A DNA stretch of 64,000 nt, from contig OX638375.1 of assembly GCA_951813575.1 (NCBI GenBank), positions 3,882,752 to 3,946,751 of the forward strand. Reading direction: 5' to 3'. The notes below the pieces were generated by a model. The model saw only the letters and a list, made by a program, of their open reading frames with translations. It did not search any database and was not told where the DNA came from. Each line of letters starts with the position of its first letter. The stretch's first letter is position 1. This stretch comes from Candidatus Binatia bacterium (GTDB lineage Bacteria > Desulfobacterota > Binatia > UBA9968 > JAJDTQ01). Below, in pieces: positions 3,410 through 51,952 of the stretch. Position numbers and translations under genes: made by a program.

Positions 3410-4450
3410 CTACTTTGCCCCGACCAACTGCTCGAGCCGCGCCTTGGCCCCCGGCCCGATGGAAAAGACCTGCTTCACCAGGCCCAGGATCTCGGCGCCC
3501 GACAGGTACGATATCTCGATGCCGATCTTCTTGGACGCGGCCTTGAACTCCGGGTCGTCCAGGGTGTTCTTGAAGGCGGTCTGGAGCGCCTCCAGCCGAT
3601 CCTTCGGGATGCCCGGCGGCGTCACGTAGGCGCGGAAGAGCTTGTACGGCGCCAGCCACGCCTCGTAGGCCGCGCGCTCGTCGTCGTTCTTGATGTGGTC
3701 GGCGAACAGCGGCAGGTTCTTGAGCACGGGCTCTTCCTTGTCGCCGGTGGTGAGGAAGGGAATCAGCCGGTCGCCTTCCTTGCCTTTGAGCATTTCCGTG
3801 GCCTGGATCCGCACCGACTCCCACGAAGAGCAGTACCCGTCCACCTCCTTGCGTCCCACCGCCGCGCGGATCTGCGCCGTGCCGTTGTATCCCCTGACGA
3901 CGTTGATCTTGCCGCCCACGAAGTCCCGCAGGATCAGCGGGGTGTCGCGGGTGAGGGTGCCCGCCGATCCGAAGTTGACGGGCTTCGGGGCGTTCAGGAT
4001 CCCCTTGAGGTCGGTGACCCCGGTGCGCGACATCACCATGCACGTGGGCGTGGCCTTGCCGGCGCTCCCCAGCCAGCCGAACTTGGCATTGTCGAACCGG
4101 ATGCCTTTCTCGCCGAGCACCTGCTTCATCACCAGCCCGCTGTTGGTCGCCCCGATCACCGAGCCGTCGCGTTTGGCGACGTTGTAGAGGTAGTTCATGG
4201 CGATGGCAAAGCCGGCGCCGGGCATGTTCTGGACGATGATCTTCGGGTTGCCCGGAATGTGTTGGGTGAGAGTGCGGGCGATGGTGCGGGCGTAGGTGTC
4301 GAAGCCTCCTCCCGGAGACGAGCCCAGGATGAACCGCAGGGTCTTGCCCTTGTAGAACTCCGCCACGTCGGCCCATGCGGTGGCCGGAACGGCCACGCAG
4401 AGGAGCAACGAGAATGCGGCAGCAAATCGGTACGGATGTCTCATCGGCAT
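3410..4450 (-). CDS. TctC/Bug-family periplasmic substrate-binding protein (tripartite tricarboxylate transporter receptor)
   Basis: 346 aa. N-terminal signal peptide (AAFSLLLCVAVPATAWA). Typical Bug-family length and motifs (GGGFDTYAR, QNMPGAG). Confidence 0.8.
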   Translation of the reverse strand: MPMRHPYRFAAAFSLLLCVAVPATAWADVAEFYKGKTLRFILGSSPGGGFDTYARTIARTLTQHIPGNPKIIVQNMPGAGFAIAMNYLYNVAKRDGSVIGATNSGLVMKQVLGEKGIRFDNAKFGWLGSAGKATPTCMVMSRTGVTDLKGILNAPKPVNFGSAGTLTRDTPLILRDFVGGKINVVRGYNGTAQIRAAVGRKEVDGYCSSWESVRIQATEMLKGKEGDRLIPFLTTGDKEEPVLKNLPLFADHIKNDDERAAYEAWLAPYKLFRAYVTPPGIPKDRLEALQTAFKNTLDDPEFKAASKKIGIEISYLSGAEILGLVKQVFSIGPGAKARLEQLVGAK

Positions 4451-4537: not shown

Positions 4538-5986
4538 TCACAACCGGTCCGCCCATTTCGCACGGACCTTGGCCTTGTATTCGGCGCTGACGCCGGAAAT
4601 GCCTGGGAAGTCGTCCTTCCAGGCGTAGGGCCGGCAGGCGTCCACCACCATGCAGCCCGTGGTCAGCTCCCGGCGTTGCTTGTCCTCGGGCGAAAGCCGC
4701 GGGTTGAGGATGCTGGCGGCCACGTCGAGGATCTCCGAGTCGCTCCTGGGGTCCCAGCGGGTGGACATGGCCCAGAGCACCTCGCCCACGTTGGTGATGT
4801 CCACGTCCTCGTCCACCACGATGACCATGCGCACGTCCCGGCCGCCGTCGCGGGTGGCGAGGACGCCGTATCCCGCCTGCTTGGCGTGGCCCGAGTAACG
4901 CTGTCTGACCGCCACGGTCACCACGAAGCGCCCCTGCTTCGGGAACCATACGCCCTGGACGTCCGGGATACCGGCCCGCTCCATGGCCGACCAGATGTTG
5001 GCGGAGCGGATGTACTTGTGGGTCTCGCTGTTGAGGAAGGTCCTGAGAGGCGGATCGCCGGTGATAATGGGATCGTCGCGGTGGTACACGGCTTCCACCT
5101 TCACCACCGGAGCCTGCCGGGAACCGGACGCGTAGTACCCGGGCCACTCACCGAACGGCCCCTCCTCGTGGGTCTCCTGTTCGGGGGGCGGTATATGGCC
5201 CTCCAGGACGATGTCCGCGAAGGCGGGTACGGGCAGCCCGGTCTTTTGTGCCTTGATGACCGGGACCGGGGTCTCCAGGAGCCCGCCCAGGAAGTCGTAC
5301 TCGCTCATGTTCCAGGGGATGCCCACGGCGCTCGCGGTCATCATGCCCGGGGGCAGGCCGCAGACGATGGCCACCGGGCAGCTCTCGCCCCGGGCCCAGT
5401 ACTTCCGGGTGATCAGGTCGCCATGCTTCCCCGGGATCATCCACACGCCCACGGTGTTCTCGTCGTGGACCTGGACGCGGTAGGTGCCGACGTTGACGTA
5501 GCCGGTATCGGGATCGCGGCAGACCGTGGCGGTGAACGTGCCGATGTAGCGGCCGCCGTCATCCGCGTGCCATTTGGGCGTGGGGAACTTGAGCACGTTG
5601 ACGTCGCCGTCGAAGGCGACGTTCTCCAAAAGCGGCGATTCGCCGATCTCGGTCGGGGGGATGGGCTTCAGATCCTGGAGCCGCCCCTTGACGGCCTGGA
5701 CCACCTCCAGACCGCGGACGTCCGGCGGCATGCCCAGGGCCAGGGCGTCGGACTCGGGCGACCGGAGGACGTTGCTGAGCACGCGGTAGCCTTCCGGGTG
5801 ATCCGGAACGGCGTCGAAGAGCAGCGCCGAGCCCTCGCCGGATTCGGCCGCGATCTCGGTGAGGGCGCCGATCTCCAGGTCCCAGTGGGCGTCGCGGATC
5901 TCCTTGAGCTTTCCCGCCTGCCTGAGCCGGTGGATGAAAGTCCGCAGGTTCAGGGCCGCTTCAACGTCCCGTGGCTCGCTCGTCAT
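4538..5986 (-). CDS. UbiD-family (prFMN-dependent) aromatic acid decarboxylase
   Basis: ~480 aa. UbiD-like sequence throughout (…KFPTPKWHADDGGRYIGT…GIPWNMSEYDFLGGL…). Start taken at ATG 5984-5986 (MTSEPRD). Confidence 0.8.
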   Translation of the reverse strand: MTSEPRDVEAALNLRTFIHRLRQAGKLKEIRDAHWDLEIGALTEIAAESGEGSALLFDAVPDHPEGYRVLSNVLRSPESDALALGMPPDVRGLEVVQAVKGRLQDLKPIPPTEIGESPLLENVAFDGDVNVLKFPTPKWHADDGGRYIGTFTATVCRDPDTGYVNVGTYRVQVHDENTVGVWMIPGKHGDLITRKYWARGESCPVAIVCGLPPGMMTASAVGIPWNMSEYDFLGGLLETPVPVIKAQKTGLPVPAFADIVLEGHIPPPEQETHEEGPFGEWPGYYASGSRQAPVVKVEAVYHRDDPIITGDPPLRTFLNSETHKYIRSANIWSAMERAGIPDVQGVWFPKQGRFVVTVAVRQRYSGHAKQAGYGVLATRDGGRDVRMVIVVDEDVDITNVGEVLWAMSTRWDPRSDSEILDVAASILNPRLSPEDKQRRELTTGCMVVDACRPYAWKDDFPGISGVSAEYKAKVRAKWADRL

Positions 5987-6202
5987 GCATCCATCTCCAT
6001 GGGATGTTGGATCCGAGGGTCGGTCCGCAACCATCCATAGGCCCTATAGGCCCACCGCGGGCGGCTGTCAACCTGGACATCCGCGCCCATTTTGTCTAAG
6101 CGTGTAGGGGCGGGTTTCGGACCCGCCCGCGCCCGGTCACGACCGACACCGCCACCGACCGGGGCCGGGACACAGCCATTCACAGGAGGTCGAGAAGCAG
6201 AC

Positions 6203-26628: not shown

Positions 26629-26664
26629 GCCCCCTCCCGTCACCGGCCTCCGGGTGCCCTCCAT

Positions 26665-26693
26665 GTCACCCCGGGCTTGACCCGGGGTCCAGG
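26665..26693. repeat. Solo copy of palindromic repeat arm GTCACCCCGGGCTTGACCCGGGGTCCAGG (family 1)
   Basis: Identical to the left arms at 50326-50354 and near-identical to 30992-31016. Lies between convergent genes. Confidence 0.6.
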
Positions 26694-26713
26694 CGGCGGG
26701 GCGGGGGGTGGAC

Positions 26714-27571
26714 TCACGCCTGCAGCCGGTCCTTGCCGGCCACGGTGGTGCGGCGCAGGAGCCGGCGCTCGCTGTCCGGGTAGAACGTGCGGGCGTGGAT
26801 GGAGCAGAAGTTGTCCCACATCAGCAGGTCCCCCACCTCCCAGGTGTGCTCGTACCGGAAGCTCGGGTCCTCGGTGATGTCGAACAGGTCGCTCAGAATG
26901 GCGTCGCTCTCCGCCCGGTCCATGCCCTCGATGCGCACCGACATCATGCGGTTCACGTAGAGCGCCCTGCGGCCCGTCACCGGGTGGGTGATGAAGATGG
27001 GCTGCACGTAGTAACGGGCGCCGCTCAAGTCGATGTCGGCGTCCACCGTGTGCCGCTGGTAGTCGTAGACCTGCAGCACCTTGCATCCCTCCAGTTTCGC
27101 CTTGAGGTCCGCCGGGACATTGTCGTAGGCGGCACACTGGTTCGTGACCATGGTATGGCCGCCCTGGGTCGACACCTCGATACCGTAGAGGATGGTGACG
27201 TGGTCGGGTATCTCGTGGAACGCGGTGTCCTGGTGGAAGCCCATTTCTCTGTCGCCGTTGGCCGAGGCCCCTTCCAGCGGCTTGCCGTTCTCCTTGATGT
27301 TGCTCACCACCATCACCGGCGTCGTGTAGATGTCGTCGTCGGACTTCCGGAGGCGCGGCCCCACGGTGCGCTTGCCGATGTCGCCGAAGGTGGTGGTGAA
27401 GCGGTTTTGCTGCTCCACCGTCATGTTCTGGCCGCGAAAGAGCAGCGCGACGTGCTCGTAGAACTCCGCCAGGATCTCGTCCCGTACCTTCGCGTCCAGC
27501 GGTTCGCTCACGTCCAGTCCGAGAATCTCCACGCCCAGGGCCGGTGAAAGCGGTCTTGTGGTCAGGCTCAT
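26714..27571 (-). CDS. TauD/TfdA-family Fe(II)/2-oxoglutarate-dependent dioxygenase
   Basis: 286 aa. HQDTAFH (HxD) and HARTFYP motifs. AGGAGA RBS. Confidence 0.75.
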   Translation of the reverse strand: MSLTTRPLSPALGVEILGLDVSEPLDAKVRDEILAEFYEHVALLFRGQNMTVEQQNRFTTTFGDIGKRTVGPRLRKSDDDIYTTPVMVVSNIKENGKPLEGASANGDREMGFHQDTAFHEIPDHVTILYGIEVSTQGGHTMVTNQCAAYDNVPADLKAKLEGCKVLQVYDYQRHTVDADIDLSGARYYVQPIFITHPVTGRRALYVNRMMSVRIEGMDRAESDAILSDLFDITEDPSFRYEHTWEVGDLLMWDNFCSIHARTFYPDSERRLLRRTTVAGKDRLQA

Positions 27572-29719: not shown

Positions 29720-30987
<1,268 letters not shown>

Positions 30988-30990
<3 letters not shown>

Positions 30991-31130
30991 ACTCCGGGCT
31001 TGACCCGGGGTCCAGGCGTCGAACCGGCCAGGTCGCCCCTTCGCTGGACCCCGGGTCAAGCCCGGGGTGACGGGAAGTGGATCCGGGGTGACGGGAAGTG
31101 GATACGGGGTGACGGAGAGTGTCCCCGGGG
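30988..31130. repeat. Composite palindromic repeat element, family 1 (left arm / loop / right arm / 22-bp tandem x2.5)
   Basis: CTCCGGGCTTGACCCGGGGTCCAGG ... CTGGACCCCGGGTCAAGCCCGGGGTGAC, followed by GGGAAGTGGATCCGGGGTGAC x2 plus a partial unit. Confidence 0.7.
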
Positions 31131-44741: not shown

Positions 44742-44764
44742 CCGCCGTGCAGGACGTCTCATGC

Positions 44765-45120
44765 CGTCATTCCCGCTCCTCCTCCGGCATTCCGCATCGC
44801 CCTCCGTCATTCCCGCTCCTCCTCCGTCATTCCCGCTCCTCCTCCGTCATTCCCGCGAAAGCGGGAATCCAGGAGGGGTGGGGCGGGGAGCCGCGTGCCC
44901 ATCTCCCCCCTCCTGGATTCCCGCTTTCGCGGGAACGACGGAGGGCCTGGATTCCCGCTTTCGCGGGAACGACGGAGGGCCTGGATTCCCGCTTTCGCGG
45001 GAACGACGGAGGGCCTGGATTCCCGTGTTCGCGGGAAATGACGGAGGGCCTGGATTCCCGTGTTCGCGGGAAATGACGGAGGGGTGTGCGGGGGAGTGAC
45101 AGGACGGGGAGACATGGCGG
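44765..45120. repeat. Composite palindromic repeat element, family 2 (22-bp tandem x3-4 / left arm / loop / right arm / 34-bp tandem x5)
   Basis: Arms CGTCATTCCCGCGAAAGCGGGAATCCAGGAGGGG and CCCCTCCTGGATTCCCGCTTTCGCGGGAACGACGG. Tandem unit GGAGGGCCTGGATTCCCGCTTTCGCGGGAACGAC. Confidence 0.7.
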
Positions 45121-49170: not shown

Positions 49171-49974
49171 TTGATGACCTACGACAACATCCTATACGAC
49201 GTGACCGATCACGTGGCCACCATCACCCTCAACCGCCCGGAGTCGATGAACGCCATCAACTACAAAACCCGGGACGAGTTGCACGACGCCTGCGCCCGAG
49301 TATCTGCCGATCCGGACGTGTGGGTGTGCATCATCACCGGTGCCGGGGAACGGGCTTTCTGCACCGGGCTCGACTTGAAGGAGCGGGCGCGGGAAGTGGA
49401 CGATTCGACGTTTTTCGAGAAGCGACGGGTACGCAACCGGTCGAGCATGCAGGGCCAGAACATGCCGGTGGCGACGATGGAAAAACCCACCATCGCGTCC
49501 ATCAGGGGCTACGCCGTGGGCGGCGGCCTGGAACTGGCCCTGGCCTGCGACATCCGGGTCGCCGCCGAGGACGCCAAGCTCGGCATGTTCGAGGTGCGCC
49601 GCGGCCGGCTCGGCGGCGGCGGCGGCACCCAACGCCTGCCGCGCCTCGTCGGCATGGCGAAGGCGCTGGAGATGTCGCTCACCGGCGAGGCCGTGGACGC
49701 CCACGAAGCGTTTCGCATCGGCCTCGTGAACAAGGTGGCGCCGGTGGACAGCTACATGGACGTGGCCCGGGAGATAGCGGGCAAGATTTGCCTCGGCGCG
49801 CCGCTGTCGGTCATCGCCATCAAGGAAGCCATCACCAAGGGAATACAGCTTCCGCTCGAGCAGGGTCTCAGGCTCGAGAGCGAGCTGGGGCTGGCGCTCT
49901 CCACCACCGAGGACCAGAAAGAAGGCTCCCGCGCCTTTGCCGAGAAGCGCCCGGCGGTGTGGAAGGCGCGGTAG
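49171..49974 (+). CDS. Enoyl-CoA hydratase/isomerase (crotonase) family protein
   Basis: 267 aa. [13 protein letters not shown]. Oxyanion-hole and catalytic Glu region ([15 protein letters not shown]). Confidence 0.85.
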
Positions 49975-50045
49975 CGCCGGGAGCCGCAACTGCGTCATCC
50001 CGGACTTGCAGAACATCGTGAACTTGCGGAACATTGTCATGGACC

Positions 50046-50748
50046 ACGAAATGCCGTCCCGGCCCTCTAAAACGTCGCCCCGGGCCCCGAAAATGGCGCC
50101 CCGGGCCCCTAAAACGTCGCCGCGGGCCCCGAAGCTGGCACCGTGGGCCTCTAAAACGTCGCCGCGGGCCCCGGAAATGGCACCGTGGGCCTCTAAAACG
50201 TCGCCGCGGGCCCCGGAAATGGCACCGTGGGCCTCTGAAACGTCACCGCGGGCCCCGAAAATGACACCGTGGGCCTCTGAAACGTCGCCGCGGGCCCCGA
50301 AAATGACACCGTGGGCCTCCAAAACGTCACCCCGGGCTTGACCCGGGGTCCAGGGGTGGAGGTGGGTTGGGCATGTTGCTTGCCAAGCCTCCCGCCCCGC
50401 CCCATCTGGACCCCGGGTCAAGCCCGGGGTGACGCAGAGGCGCCCGGGGTGACGCAGAGGCGCCCGGGGTGACGCAGAGGCGCCCGGGGTGACGCAGGGG
50501 CGCCCGGGGTGACGCAGGGGCGCCCGGGGTGACGCAGGGGCGCCCGGGGTGACGCAGGGGCGCCCGGGGGGTGACGCAGGGGCGCCCGGGGTGACGCAGG
50601 GGCGCCCGGGGTGACGCAGGGGCGCCCGGGGTGACGCAGGGGCGCCCGGGGTGACGCAGGGGCGCCCGGGGTGACGCAGGGGCGCCCGGGATGACGCAGG
50701 GGCGCCCGGGATGACGCAGAGGCGTCTGGGATGACGCAGGGGCGTCTG
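50046..50748. repeat. Composite palindromic repeat element, family 1, full copy (42-bp tandem x~6.5 / left arm / 51-bp loop / right arm / 20-bp tandem x~16)
   Basis: 42-bp unit approximately CCTCTAAAACGTCGCCGCGGGCCCCGGAAATGGCACCGTGGG. Arms GTCACCCCGGGCTTGACCCGGGGTCCAGG (50326-50354) and CTGGACCCCGGGTCAAGCCCGGGGTGAC (50406-50433). 20-bp unit GCAGRGGCGCCCGGGGTGAC. Confidence 0.75.
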
Positions 50749-50779
50749 GAATTGCGATTCGTAGGAACCAGGAGGAACC

Positions 50780-51952
50780 ATGAGCACCAATCTGAGCGGA
50801 AAATACGCCATCGTCGGCGTGGGACAGAGCCCCCTGGGCAAGGTGCCCGAGCTCGGCCCCATCGGACTCTTCGCGGTGGCGGCCAAGAACGCCATCGAGG
50901 ATGCCGGCCTGAAGAAGGAGGACGTGGACGGCCTCATCACCCGCGGACCGGACGACGTCTACTGCCACCACCAGCGCGTGGGAGAAGCGTTGGGACTGAA
51001 CGTCACCTTCAGCACCTCCACCGCCAACGGCGGCGCGAGCCAGACCATGGCCGTGGCGATGGCGTGCATGGCCATCGAGGCCGGCGTTTGCAACACCGTG
51101 GTCGTGGGTTACGGCCGCGACACCTGGTCGCGGACCCATCGCAACGCCGAGGCCAAGCAGGCGGTGGCTTCCAGTCCGCGGACCTACTCGGAGTTCGGCT
51201 CCGAGTTCGGCCGGTTCGGCGCGCCGGTGAACTACGCGGTTTCGGCCCGGCGCCACATGGAGCGTTTCGGCACCACCAAGGCGCAACTCGGCGCCATCGC
51301 GGTGGCGTTCCGCAACCACGCCCGCAAGAACCCTCACGCCTTCATGAAGAAGCCCCTGACCCTGGACGAGTACCTGGGCGCCCGGCTCATCGTGGACCCG
51401 CTCTGTCTCTTCGATTGCAGCGTGTTCATCGACGGCGCCGGGGCGGTGGTGGTGACCAGCGCGGAGCGCGCCCGGGATCTCCGGCAGCCGCCCGCCTATG
51501 TCCGCGGCTTCGGTTTCGGCAACCGCCTGAGCGGGTGGTACAACGACGACAACATGATCAACACCGGCGCCAAGGAAGCGGGGGAGGCGGCCTACAAGAT
51601 GGCGGGCATCGGCCCCCAGGACGTGGACACCGCCCAGATCTACGACTGCTTCACCCACATGGTGCTGCTGCAGCTCGAGGACTACGGCTTCTGCGCCAAG
51701 GGCGAGGGCGGGCCTTTCGTCGGCTCCGGGGCCTTGGAATTCGACGGCGTGCTGCCAACCAACACCTCCGGCGGCCAGCTCTCGGAAGGGCACATCGAGG
51801 GCATGCTCCAGGTGCTGGAAGGCGCCCGTCAGGTCCGCCGCGAGCACACCCCCGACCGGCAGGTGAAGGACTGCAACATCGCCTTCGTGTCCGGCCACGG
51901 CGGCAATACGGTGTGCCAGTCGGCGTTGATCCTGGGGAGGGAAGCGGGATGA
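50780..51952 (+). CDS. SCP-x/nonspecific-lipid-transfer-type thiolase (thiolase-like protein that pairs with DUF35)
   Basis: 390 aa. YAIVGVGQSP N-terminus. Thiolase fold. Followed, with overlap, by a DUF35 gene. Confidence 0.75.
   Translation: MSTNLSGKYAIVGVGQSPLGKVPELGPIGLFAVAAKNAIEDAGLKKEDVDGLITRGPDDVYCHHQRVGEALGLNVTFSTSTANGGASQTMAVAMACMAIEAGVCNTVVVGYGRDTWSRTHRNAEAKQAVASSPRTYSEFGSEFGRFGAPVNYAVSARRHMERFGTTKAQLGAIAVAFRNHARKNPHAFMKKPLTLDEYLGARLIVDPLCLFDCSVFIDGAGAVVVTSAERARDLRQPPAYVRGFGFGNRLSGWYNDDNMINTGAKEAGEAAYKMAGIGPQDVDTAQIYDCFTHMVLLQLEDYGFCAKGEGGPFVGSGALEFDGVLPTNTSGGQLSEGHIEGMLQVLEGARQVRREHTPDRQVKDCNIAFVSGHGGNTVCQSALILGREAG

Follow-up and report, generated by a model that had tools for sequence, protein, structure and literature searches.

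Tag-side half-REP arrays flank a CGTC-tagged REP dimer between the hydratase and thiolase genes of a Candidatus Binatia genome

A REP cluster fills the hydratase–thiolase spacer

We analysed 64 kb of the genome of a Candidatus Binatia bacterium (contig OX638375.1, positions 3,882,752 to 3,946,751 of the forward strand; this whole stretch is hereafter the window), in which 805 bp separate the stop codon of an enoyl-CoA hydratase gene from the ribosome-binding site of a thiolase-like gene, nearly all of them belonging to one ordered repeat structure. We interpret this insert, with a probability of about 0.8, as a cluster of CGTC-tagged repetitive extragenic palindromes (REPs) that has a head-head dimer at its core and arrays of truncated REPs on the tag sides, and that is selfish or neutral DNA grown by local tandem duplication. 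The arms of the dimer belong to an already-known class; the unusual part of the insert is the flanking tag-side half-REP arrays. A conspicuous ‘unknown’ repeat is now placed in a class whose partner enzymes, the Ssn single-stranded DNA (ssDNA) nucleases, came only in 2025, and this class extends to a relative of the uncultured Binatia, where both an identical 28-mer and an exact Neisseria-type NTS are present.

Positions 49994–50755 form a single imperfect palindrome of 16 tandem units, a REP, a 51-nt spacer, an inverted REP and 16 further tandem units. Its parts and the neighbouring genes are as follows.

49174–49974, + strand: enoyl-CoA hydratase gene, the upstream neighbour (Pfam ECH_1, E = 1e-62)
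49994–50325, + strand: left array of 16 units, four degenerate (18–24 nt) and 12 of 21 nt
50325–50354, + strand: left REP, consisting of a CGTCA tag, stem ACCCCGGG, loop CTTGA, stem CCCGGGGT and tail CCAGG
50355–50405: spacer of the head-head dimer, with a G-rich half and a complementary C-rich half
50405–50434, − strand: right REP, an inverted copy of the left REP, with the minus-strand tag CGTCAC
50434–50755, − strand: right array of 16 units, 15 of 20 nt (one of them 22 nt) and one degenerate distal unit
50780–51952, + strand: thiolase-like gene, the downstream neighbour (Pfam Thiolase_C_1 and Thiolase_N)

The AGGAGG ribosome-binding site of the thiolase gene (50767–50772) lies outside the repeat structure. 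An earlier reading of the sequence alone (the original prediction) had described a 42-bp array, an arm, a 51-nt spacer, an inverted arm and a 20-bp array, and all of these parts were recovered where it had placed them, far beyond chance expectation. The arm sequence GTCACCCCGGGCTTGACCCGGGGTCCAGG spans 50326–50354 and its inverted counterpart 50406–50433; a 25-nt core of the arm matches the window five times (26665, 30988, 31047, 50326 and 50409; 0.00 expected) and CCGGGGTGAC occurs 16 times (0.48 expected). Tandem Repeats Finder (TRF) returned a left array at 50064–50337 (period 42, 6.5 copies, 91 % matches) and a right array at 50422–50744 (period 20, 16.0 copies, 96 % matches). The predicted period and copy number on the left therefore hold for the TRF call; however, a unit-by-unit parse resolved the 42-bp unit into two diverged 21-bp units and carried the array out to 49994.

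These 21-nt units alternate between GTCGCCGCGGGC+CCCGRAAAT and GGCACCGTGGGC+CTCTRAAAC, and each begins with a degenerate copy (9–11 of 12 positions) of GTCACCCCGGGC, the outer 12 nt of the arm, so that a left-array unit is a degenerate REP tag and 5′ stem arm followed by a linker. On the right, the unit reads GTCACCCCGGGC+GCCYCTGC on the minus strand, with the distal units diverging to GTCATCCCGGGC and GTCATCCCAGAC. The two flanks are thus the same kind of object in mirror image, namely a tag-side half-arm and a short linker repeated in tandem and ending in a complete arm.

The dimer folds further than had been anticipated. The predicted ‘51-bp G-rich loop’ has the expected 51 nt but is itself self-complementary, its halves lengthening the hairpin into an inverted repeat of approximately 51 nt per arm (80 % complementary) around an 8-nt loop. 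Likewise, GACCCGGGGTC had been called a palindrome but is not a perfect one, the relevant structure being a hairpin with an 8-bp stem and a 5-nt loop (ACCCCGGG-CTTGA-CCCGGGGT). Even the outermost ends of the repeat region are complementary to each other. In keeping with the very stable hairpin that had been foreseen upon transcription, the 161-nt core was predicted to fold as RNA at −121 kcal/mol (z = −10.8); for the whole 805 nt as ssDNA, the prediction was −271.6 kcal/mol (z = −6.8), with the inner units of both arrays pairing in register. The insert is non-coding, as had been proposed, the open reading frames (ORFs) across the arrays returning no Pfam match.

In copies from Binatia, a G-rich tract of GGGG runs spaced 1–3 nt apart comes after the CCAGG tail, with a C-rich mirror before the partner REP. 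Such tracts were seen in the window at 26694–26715, 44874–44892 and 50355–50375 and in five of the comparison sequences, which are denoted here by L and a number (L080, L087, L091, L121 and L125). The tract lengthens the dimer hairpin and could also form a G-quadruplex.

The arm is a CGTC-tagged REP

Judged by its sequence, the arm is a CGTC-tagged REP of the same class as the Neisseria dRS3/NTS repeats and the motif bound by Ssn. According to Di Nocera, De Gregorio and Rocco (2013, PMC3733652), CGTC REPs, of which Neisseria dRS3 is a member, comprise an unpaired tag of CGTC (or TGTC/CCTC), an 8–9-bp stem whose first two pairs are usually A-T, a 4–5-nt loop and a CCA tail; most copies form head-head dimers with the tags outside and spacers that often have complementary ends, and they sit between unidirectional or convergent genes. 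In the window, the tag reads CGTCAC at 50325 (+), 50434 (−), 26664 and 31072 (−) and CGTCAT at 44845, where a second composite element lies (the 44.8-kb element, described below). The main arm has the layout ACCCCGGG/CTTGA/CCCGGGGT+CCAGG, with an 8-bp stem and a 5-nt loop, while the 44.8-kb variant has a 4-nt loop; the first two stem pairs are A-T then C-G in the former and A-T then T-A in the latter. The window copies also have the extragenic head-head dimer arrangement of CGTC REPs.

The second line of evidence comes from the Neisseria motif. Chenal et al. (2025, PMC11893778) redefined the oriented form of dRS3 as NTS (CGTCATTCCCGCGMAVGCGGGAATCYRG) and described SsnA, a 94-aa GIY-YIG protein that binds NTS only as ssDNA and cleaves only the REP strand, a few nucleotides upstream of the tag, even if the loop is lengthened or the two motif halves come as separate strands. 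The same paper reports that ‘Ssn-related motifs’ (SRMs) flank ssn genes across many phyla and calls the NTS-ssnA-NTS layout IS-like, that is, insertion sequence (IS)-like. Positions 44845–44872 of the window (CGTCATTCCCGCGAAAGCGGGAATCCAG) show no mismatch to the Neisseria meningitidis NTS consensus CGTCATTCCCGCGMAVGCGGGAATCYRG, and the main arm keeps the layout but has another stem.

The likeness to CGTC REPs and NTS/SRM motifs therefore extends from tag, stem, loop and CCA(G) tail to outward-tag head-head dimers, complementary spacer ends, an extragenic position after a gene, one variant identical to the NTS consensus and identical arms flanking ssn-like genes of Sphingomonadales. It follows that the repeat is not, as had been supposed, an element without a description. 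The present case differs in that its Binatia-related host lies outside the groups named in the accessible text of PMC3733652 and PMC11893778, in that arrays of truncated REPs (tag and 5′ stem arm) stand beside the dimer, of which the same text makes no mention, and in that searches of the window and the Binatia loci turned up no ssn gene. Di Nocera and colleagues mention higher-order tandem clusters of whole REPs in general terms (PMC3733652), and we found no description of CGTC half-REP arrays beside a head-head dimer in the open-access literature as far as its text was accessible, which agrees with the earlier view that the flanking satellite-like arrays are unusual.

Other repeat classes fit less well. 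REPINs and BIMEs also contain two inverted REPs forming a long hairpin, build higher-order tandems that include flanking sequence and are targets of IS110-family elements; however, the tag of the arm is CGTC(A) rather than the GTAG of the REPIN/RAYT class, no RAYT gene is known here, and the repeated unit is a half-REP at 20–23 nt instead of whole REPs or REPINs at ~70–110 bp or more. For GTAG REPs of Pseudomonas, REPINs and tandem REP/REPIN clusters have been described, the latter made of whole units, sometimes with flanking DNA (Bertels and Rainey 2011). Reiteration of complete REPs with conserved linkers, as in BIMEs and NIMEs, was seen only in the 34-bp × 5 array at 44912–45083, which is a known kind of whole-REP tandem cluster; the arrays of the insert hold tag-side halves only. 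The NIMEs of Neisseria resemble the insert in being large intergenic clusters around CGTC-1/dRS3 hairpins that vary between strains, and Di Nocera and colleagues also make mention of them. They reportedly interleave complete dRS3 pairs with 50–150-bp RS repeats, as Parkhill et al. are said to have described in 2000, whereas here the filler is 8–11 nt and the hairpin is incomplete in each array unit. With miniature inverted-repeat transposable elements (MITEs), the insert shares its short non-coding nature, inverted ends and insertion polymorphism among relatives; it differs in lacking a readable target-site duplication and in having arms that are self-folding hairpins with an orientation tag. 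We know of no transposase with ends matching these arms. Of the proposed MITE/REP-like nature, then, the REP-like part stands; for the MITE part, no target-site duplication could be read and no cognate enzyme was found in the window. Finally, Rfam returned no family at gathering score for the arm, the only matches being those of the long hairpin to models of microRNA precursors, below threshold.

Other REP loci in the window

The window holds four REP loci, three of them head-head dimers, and every copy is intergenic. Besides the insert, they are the following.

26664–26693, + strand: solo REP with the same sequence as the main arm, flanked by convergent genes of the glyoxalase and TauD families
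30994–31130: third dimer, consisting of a left REP minus its first 6 nt, a 27-nt spacer and a right REP (31043–31072, minus strand), with half-REP units after it
44764–45083: second composite element, with an NTS-type REP

Recurrence of the arm near 26665 and 31 kb had been predicted and was found, except that the left arm at 30988 is truncated because an IS110-family insertion sequence lies inside it (see below). The right REP of this third dimer is followed by approximately three half-REP units of 21 nt (CCGGGGTGAC+GGGAAGTGGAT). The 44.8-kb element starts with four half-REP units of 20 nt (GTCATTCCCGC+TCCTCCTCC) that lead into a REP (CGTCATTCCCGCGAAAGCGGGAATCCAGG, 44845–44873) with the stem ATTCCCGC/GAAA/GCGGGAAT followed by CCAGG; a 38-nt G/C-rich spacer and five whole inverted REPs with a 34-bp period (44912–45083) make up its right side. 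The element is composite, as predicted, but its architecture is not identical to that of the insert, its right array consisting of whole arms instead of half-arms. Both hairpin types of the window share the outer GTCA and inner TCCAGG, and their stems differ by paired changes.

Relatives form an allelic series at the spacer

Orthologous operons were fetched from other assemblies via hydratase homologues, and their gene order was the same. Their spacers (positions in the fetched sequence in brackets where given) are listed with the identity of the hydratase to that of the window.

L127 (3802–4325), identical hydratase: full composite
L100 (3802–3823), 92 %: 22 bp, no repeat
L101 (3802–3878), 91 %: 77 bp, with a solo REP (identical 28-mer, + orientation) 18 nt after the stop codon
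L129 (3802–3842), 91 %: 41 bp, containing GCGGGAATCCAGG, the 3′ half of an NTS-type REP
L128 (3449–3487), 91 %: contig stops in array-like units right after the stop codon
L102 and L103, 85 %: 88 bp, GC-rich, no REP
L104, 70 %: 211 bp, unrelated and AT-rich

Close relatives are thus either empty or carry one solo REP at this site, and the insert is lineage-specific; together with relatives’ spacers of 22–88 bp, this supports the proposal that it was inserted into an operon whose genes are otherwise closely spaced. Among strains with at least 91 % identical hydratase, the hydratase–thiolase spacer behaves as a hot spot of REP gain and decay. The outermost left unit of the window, CGTCATCCCGGACTTG, can be aligned to nucleotides 1–16 of the L101 REP, both lying 18 nt from the stop codon, suggesting that a solo REP probably preceded the composite here. 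No target-site duplication was readable, since the empty site (L100) and the filled ones (L101, window) have flanks that are too diverged. The empty, solo-REP and composite spacers constitute a natural allelic series for the effect of a REP cluster on operon expression.

The arrays are real and vary between samples

Perfect 20-bp repeats are difficult to assemble, and mis-joined or inflated repeats could in principle have produced the arrays. This is hardly credible for the present locus, given that three other assemblies from different samples contain array ends or the entire left array and that comparable arrays occur in 21 metagenome contigs and several genomes. Two short-read contigs from other samples with an identical thiolase gene (L098 and L099) start inside the right array and have distal units that differ from those of the window. 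The L127 scaffold, from a third sample, spans the region with an identical dimer and a left array of the same length (333 bp) bearing several unit substitutions; it shows only ~2 right-hand units, the one result that would favour an artefact, which reflects either collapsed assembly or a shorter allele. The arrays are therefore real and sample-variable, as the independent assemblies attest, and half-REP arrays explain short-read assembly breaks at such loci.

The arm is widespread across phyla

The original prediction considered the repeat genome-specific. This did not hold: a scan for the exact 28-mer arm, for which one genome per species was used and all counts are lower bounds, found it in at least 97 genome stretches with at least eight phylum labels. 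By record title, the carriers include many Sphingomonadales, other Alpha-, Beta- and Gammaproteobacteria, Candidatus Binatia, Myxococcales and Thermodesulfobacteriota, with further carriers in Nitrospinota, Elusimicrobiota, Armatimonadota and a Candidatus Vogelbacteria metagenome-assembled genome (MAG). Some single MAG matches could be binning errors, yet the surrounding DNA differs from locus to locus in both composition and sequence. The window is, over its first 7 kb, 86–91 % identical to two chromosomes labelled uncultured Candidatus Binatia, and the related chromosome OZ244617.1 holds at least ten exact copies of the arm. Partner arms at other loci keep the GTCA...TCCAG frame with different stems (e.g. 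GTCATGCCGGACTTGATCCGGCATCCAG and GTCATCCTGAACTTGTTTCAGGATCC); the scan for them demanded a perfect stem, so these variants serve as illustration and do not test covariation independently. Horizontal transfer of REP-ssn units and constraint by the nuclease are two candidate routes by which the 28-mer may have come to span phyla. A phage vector was rejected, with no match in 2.9 million viral contigs.

Half-REP arrays are polar

We assessed the generality of the arrays in an unbiased set of the 97 loci plus the window, containing 205 perfect-stem REPs, by looking for copies of each REP’s own halves (≤1 mismatch, 14–30 nt away). The tag-side half was copied upstream in 12 of the 205 REPs and downstream, at the equivalent distance, in none; for tail-side halves, there was one upstream copy and no downstream copy. 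The period was 20–22 nt in nine of these 12 REPs, and upstream half copies were found for 5/33 REPs in Binatia loci and 7/172 elsewhere. TRF applied to the same set of loci returned REP-adjacent arrays with periods of 14–27 nt (mode 20–21) in Binatia, Sphingopyxis, Lysobacterales (25 nt × 6.6), Armatimonadota and Elusimicrobiota.

A metagenome scan for three exact half-REPs spaced 19–23 nt, which sees only those periods and so does not measure the true spread, yielded 21 contigs, in 19 of which the run ends directly in a full REP; the exceptions are L110, whose terminal REP is cut by an insertion sequence, and L109, whose end is ambiguous. The linkers are locus-specific, uniform within an array and 2–13 nt long. 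At at least four loci (L106/L123, L108, L116 and L121), a 23-nt unit truncated after 21–22 nt of the REP, GTCACCCCGGGCTTGACCCGGAC, stands in two or three tandem copies upstream of a full REP. The clearest asymmetric composite is L116 (reverse strand, downstream of rc 4529), where a partner REP of the GTCATCCCGGACTTGATCCGGGAT type is followed by approximately eight half-REP units of 21–22 nt, as against two or three on the other side. Polar half-REP arrays are an easily searched signature that could be used for studying the expansion of REP clusters and any involvement of Ssn cleavage.

Ssn-like genes beside the arm

In L074, L079 and L086, an ORF of 98–99 aa begins just after an exact 28-mer, and all three match Pfam GIY-YIG. 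On Sphingobium megaplasmids, two inverted arms enclose an ssn-like GIY-YIG gene annotated as ‘excinuclease ABC subunit C’ (L130, 401–786). If exposed as ssDNA, the insert would form hairpins such as are bound by a cognate Ssn-type GIY-YIG nuclease and cut immediately upstream. Querying a database with the Sphingomonas Ssn gave only Sphingomonadales among the 120 organism-named matches listed and is uninformative on Binatia. The metagenome contig L117 has two ssn-like (GIY-YIG) ORFs (3946–4245 and 5670–6035; hidden Markov model (HMM) E values of about 1e-7 and 1e-6) located 3–5 kb from a half-REP array.

Origin of the arrays

The identity and history of the insert have good support, and for the growth of its arrays we propose the following. 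Under our preferred interpretation, a REP would first have landed 18 nt after the hydratase stop codon, and local tandem duplication, by slippage during replication or by unequal exchange, would then have enlarged the arrays; a polymerase that stalls at the REP hairpin probably promoted this. The nascent strand would stall inside the hairpin and realign on the upstream copy, amplifying single units first and two-unit blocks later. The right-hand edge of the unit falls between hairpin positions 10 and 21, and an edge anywhere in this range, together with the tag-side-only placement, fits a stalled nascent strand that realigns upstream. The uniform locus-specific linkers, the 42-bp superunit, the distal divergence and the sample-variable units likewise point to satellite-like growth by local tandem duplication. 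We infer that the element is selfish or neutral DNA, and a target for a REP-specific IS110 element, rather than an operon device. In the polycistronic mRNA, a perfect 28-bp duplex within a ~50-bp stem without a U tract would form, and this, if it has any effect, would most likely act as a barrier to 3′-exonucleases or as an RNase III site, uncoupling the expression of hydratase and thiolase.

Several points weigh against this interpretation. Slippage alone leaves the clustering of periods at 20–23 nt unexplained, and random slippage does not predict the recurrence of the 23-nt truncated unit at at least four loci. The equal unit counts, 16/16 in the insert and 4/4 at 44.8 kb, are also unexplained, though other loci are asymmetric, and the count of 16 right-hand units comes from one assembly, the short-read scaffold having ~2. 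The original prediction had also raised a role as attenuator or RNA-processing site. No promoter- or terminator-like site was found inside the insert by a consensus scan, and the possible effect of the predicted RNA fold on the operon is purely inferential. Searches by tblastn and a small HMM did not find an ssn-like gene, of the cd10448 type of single-domain GIY-YIG genes, in the window, in 14 loci from Binatia genomes or, except for L117, in other later-fetched loci.

The alternative that gives the dimer the leading part treats it as a mobile, non-autonomous, MITE-like derivative of REP-ssn-REP that transposed as a unit, the arrays being secondary. The presence/absence polymorphism at the same spacer would be expected of such an element, the same two arms flank the GIY-YIG gene on the Sphingobium plasmids and in L079 and L086, and REPINs as well as the IS-like NTS-ssnA-NTS layout (PMC11893778) offer precedents. 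We regard it as possible but doubtful: the intermediate allele, L101, is a solo REP and not a dimer, no target-site duplication could be read, no mobilising enzyme was identified, and the spacers of the three window dimers are unrelated, so that these dimers are not copies of one another.

A different possibility is that an Ssn-type nuclease produces the half-REP arrays or is served by them. In one version, ssDNA nicks upstream of the tag would lead to displacement synthesis, and hairpin-protected flaps would be ligated back, one unit at a time; in the other, the arrays would be natural ‘split-site’ substrates in which each first half pairs with the single second half, multiplying the cleavage sites. 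Such a role would suit an enzyme that, according to PMC11893778, cuts only the REP strand, as ssDNA and on the tag side, and tolerates split halves or a longer loop, and it would suit arrays that lie strictly on the tag (cleavage) side and recur with different REP variants in several phyla. We nevertheless think it quite unlikely, in view of linker lengths that range from 2 to 13 nt, the circular permutation of tandem units, which prevents their phase from being linked to a cut site, the lack of any known joining activity of GIY-YIG nucleases, and the failure to find an ssn gene in the window and Binatia loci. The more general proposition, that half-REP arrays are the footprint of a directional, hairpin-coupled duplication across phyla, possibly started by an Ssn nick, or else natural multi-site ‘split’ Ssn substrates, is one that we put forward tentatively and would not expect to hold; if true in either form, it would give a first mechanistic handle on the growth of CGTC REP clusters. 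Views of REP biology are unchanged unless array formation proves to be enzyme-driven.

BIMEs bind IHF and gyrase in E. coli, and the arrays might by analogy be a selected protein-binding platform, with double-stranded GTCACCCCGGG sites two helical turns apart that regulate the operon or organise the nucleoid. Periods clustering at 20–22 nt and a left array whose length (333 bp) is kept in two samples would accord with selection of this kind. The left-array units, however, share the same two or three mismatches to the REP throughout, which indicates propagation by copying and not selection for a consensus; each REP variant has arrays of its own sequence, the periods range over 14–30 nt overall, and relatives lack the arrays altogether, making a platform very improbable.

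Coupled growth of both arrays, suggested by the counts of 16/16 and 4/4, was rejected as a general rule, since dimers elsewhere have 8/0, 3/8, 5/0, 3/2 and 2/2 units on their two sides. A nested origin, with REPs inserted serially into an older REP’s loop, was discarded on the grounds that the right-hand units end in TGAC (the inverted tag) instead of the expected TCCAG tail. Nor do the arrays resemble a CRISPR or TIGR-like guide array, their linkers being constant within each array and their neighbours being metabolic genes with no cas or tas genes nearby. A coding repeat protein (42 bp corresponding to 14 codons) is contradicted by the lack of Pfam matches, by the other periods of 20, 22, 23 and 25 and by relatives without the sequence, and a plasmid-partition centromere or iterons by the absence of par or rep genes nearby and by arrays that are inverted and not direct.

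An IS110-family element within a REP

The truncation of the third dimer of the window is accounted for by the following features.

29804–30993, + strand: displaced start of the left REP, GTCACC (29804–29809), and IS110-family insertion sequence (29810–30993)
30025–30969: IS110-family transposase gene (Pfam DEDD_Tnp_IS110 and Transposase_20)

In the 31-kb dimer, the element interrupts the left REP precisely at the junction of GTCACC and CCGGGC. An insertion sequence 95–98 % identical to it occupies the same position, directly after GTCACC, in the metagenome contig L110 (reverse strand, ~1–330), where it follows a half-REP array. Targeting of REPs by IS110-family elements is already known from the literature, and the insertions in the window and in L110 agree with it. 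The 5′ non-coding region of the element (29810–30024) should encode the guide (bridge) RNA for the REP target.

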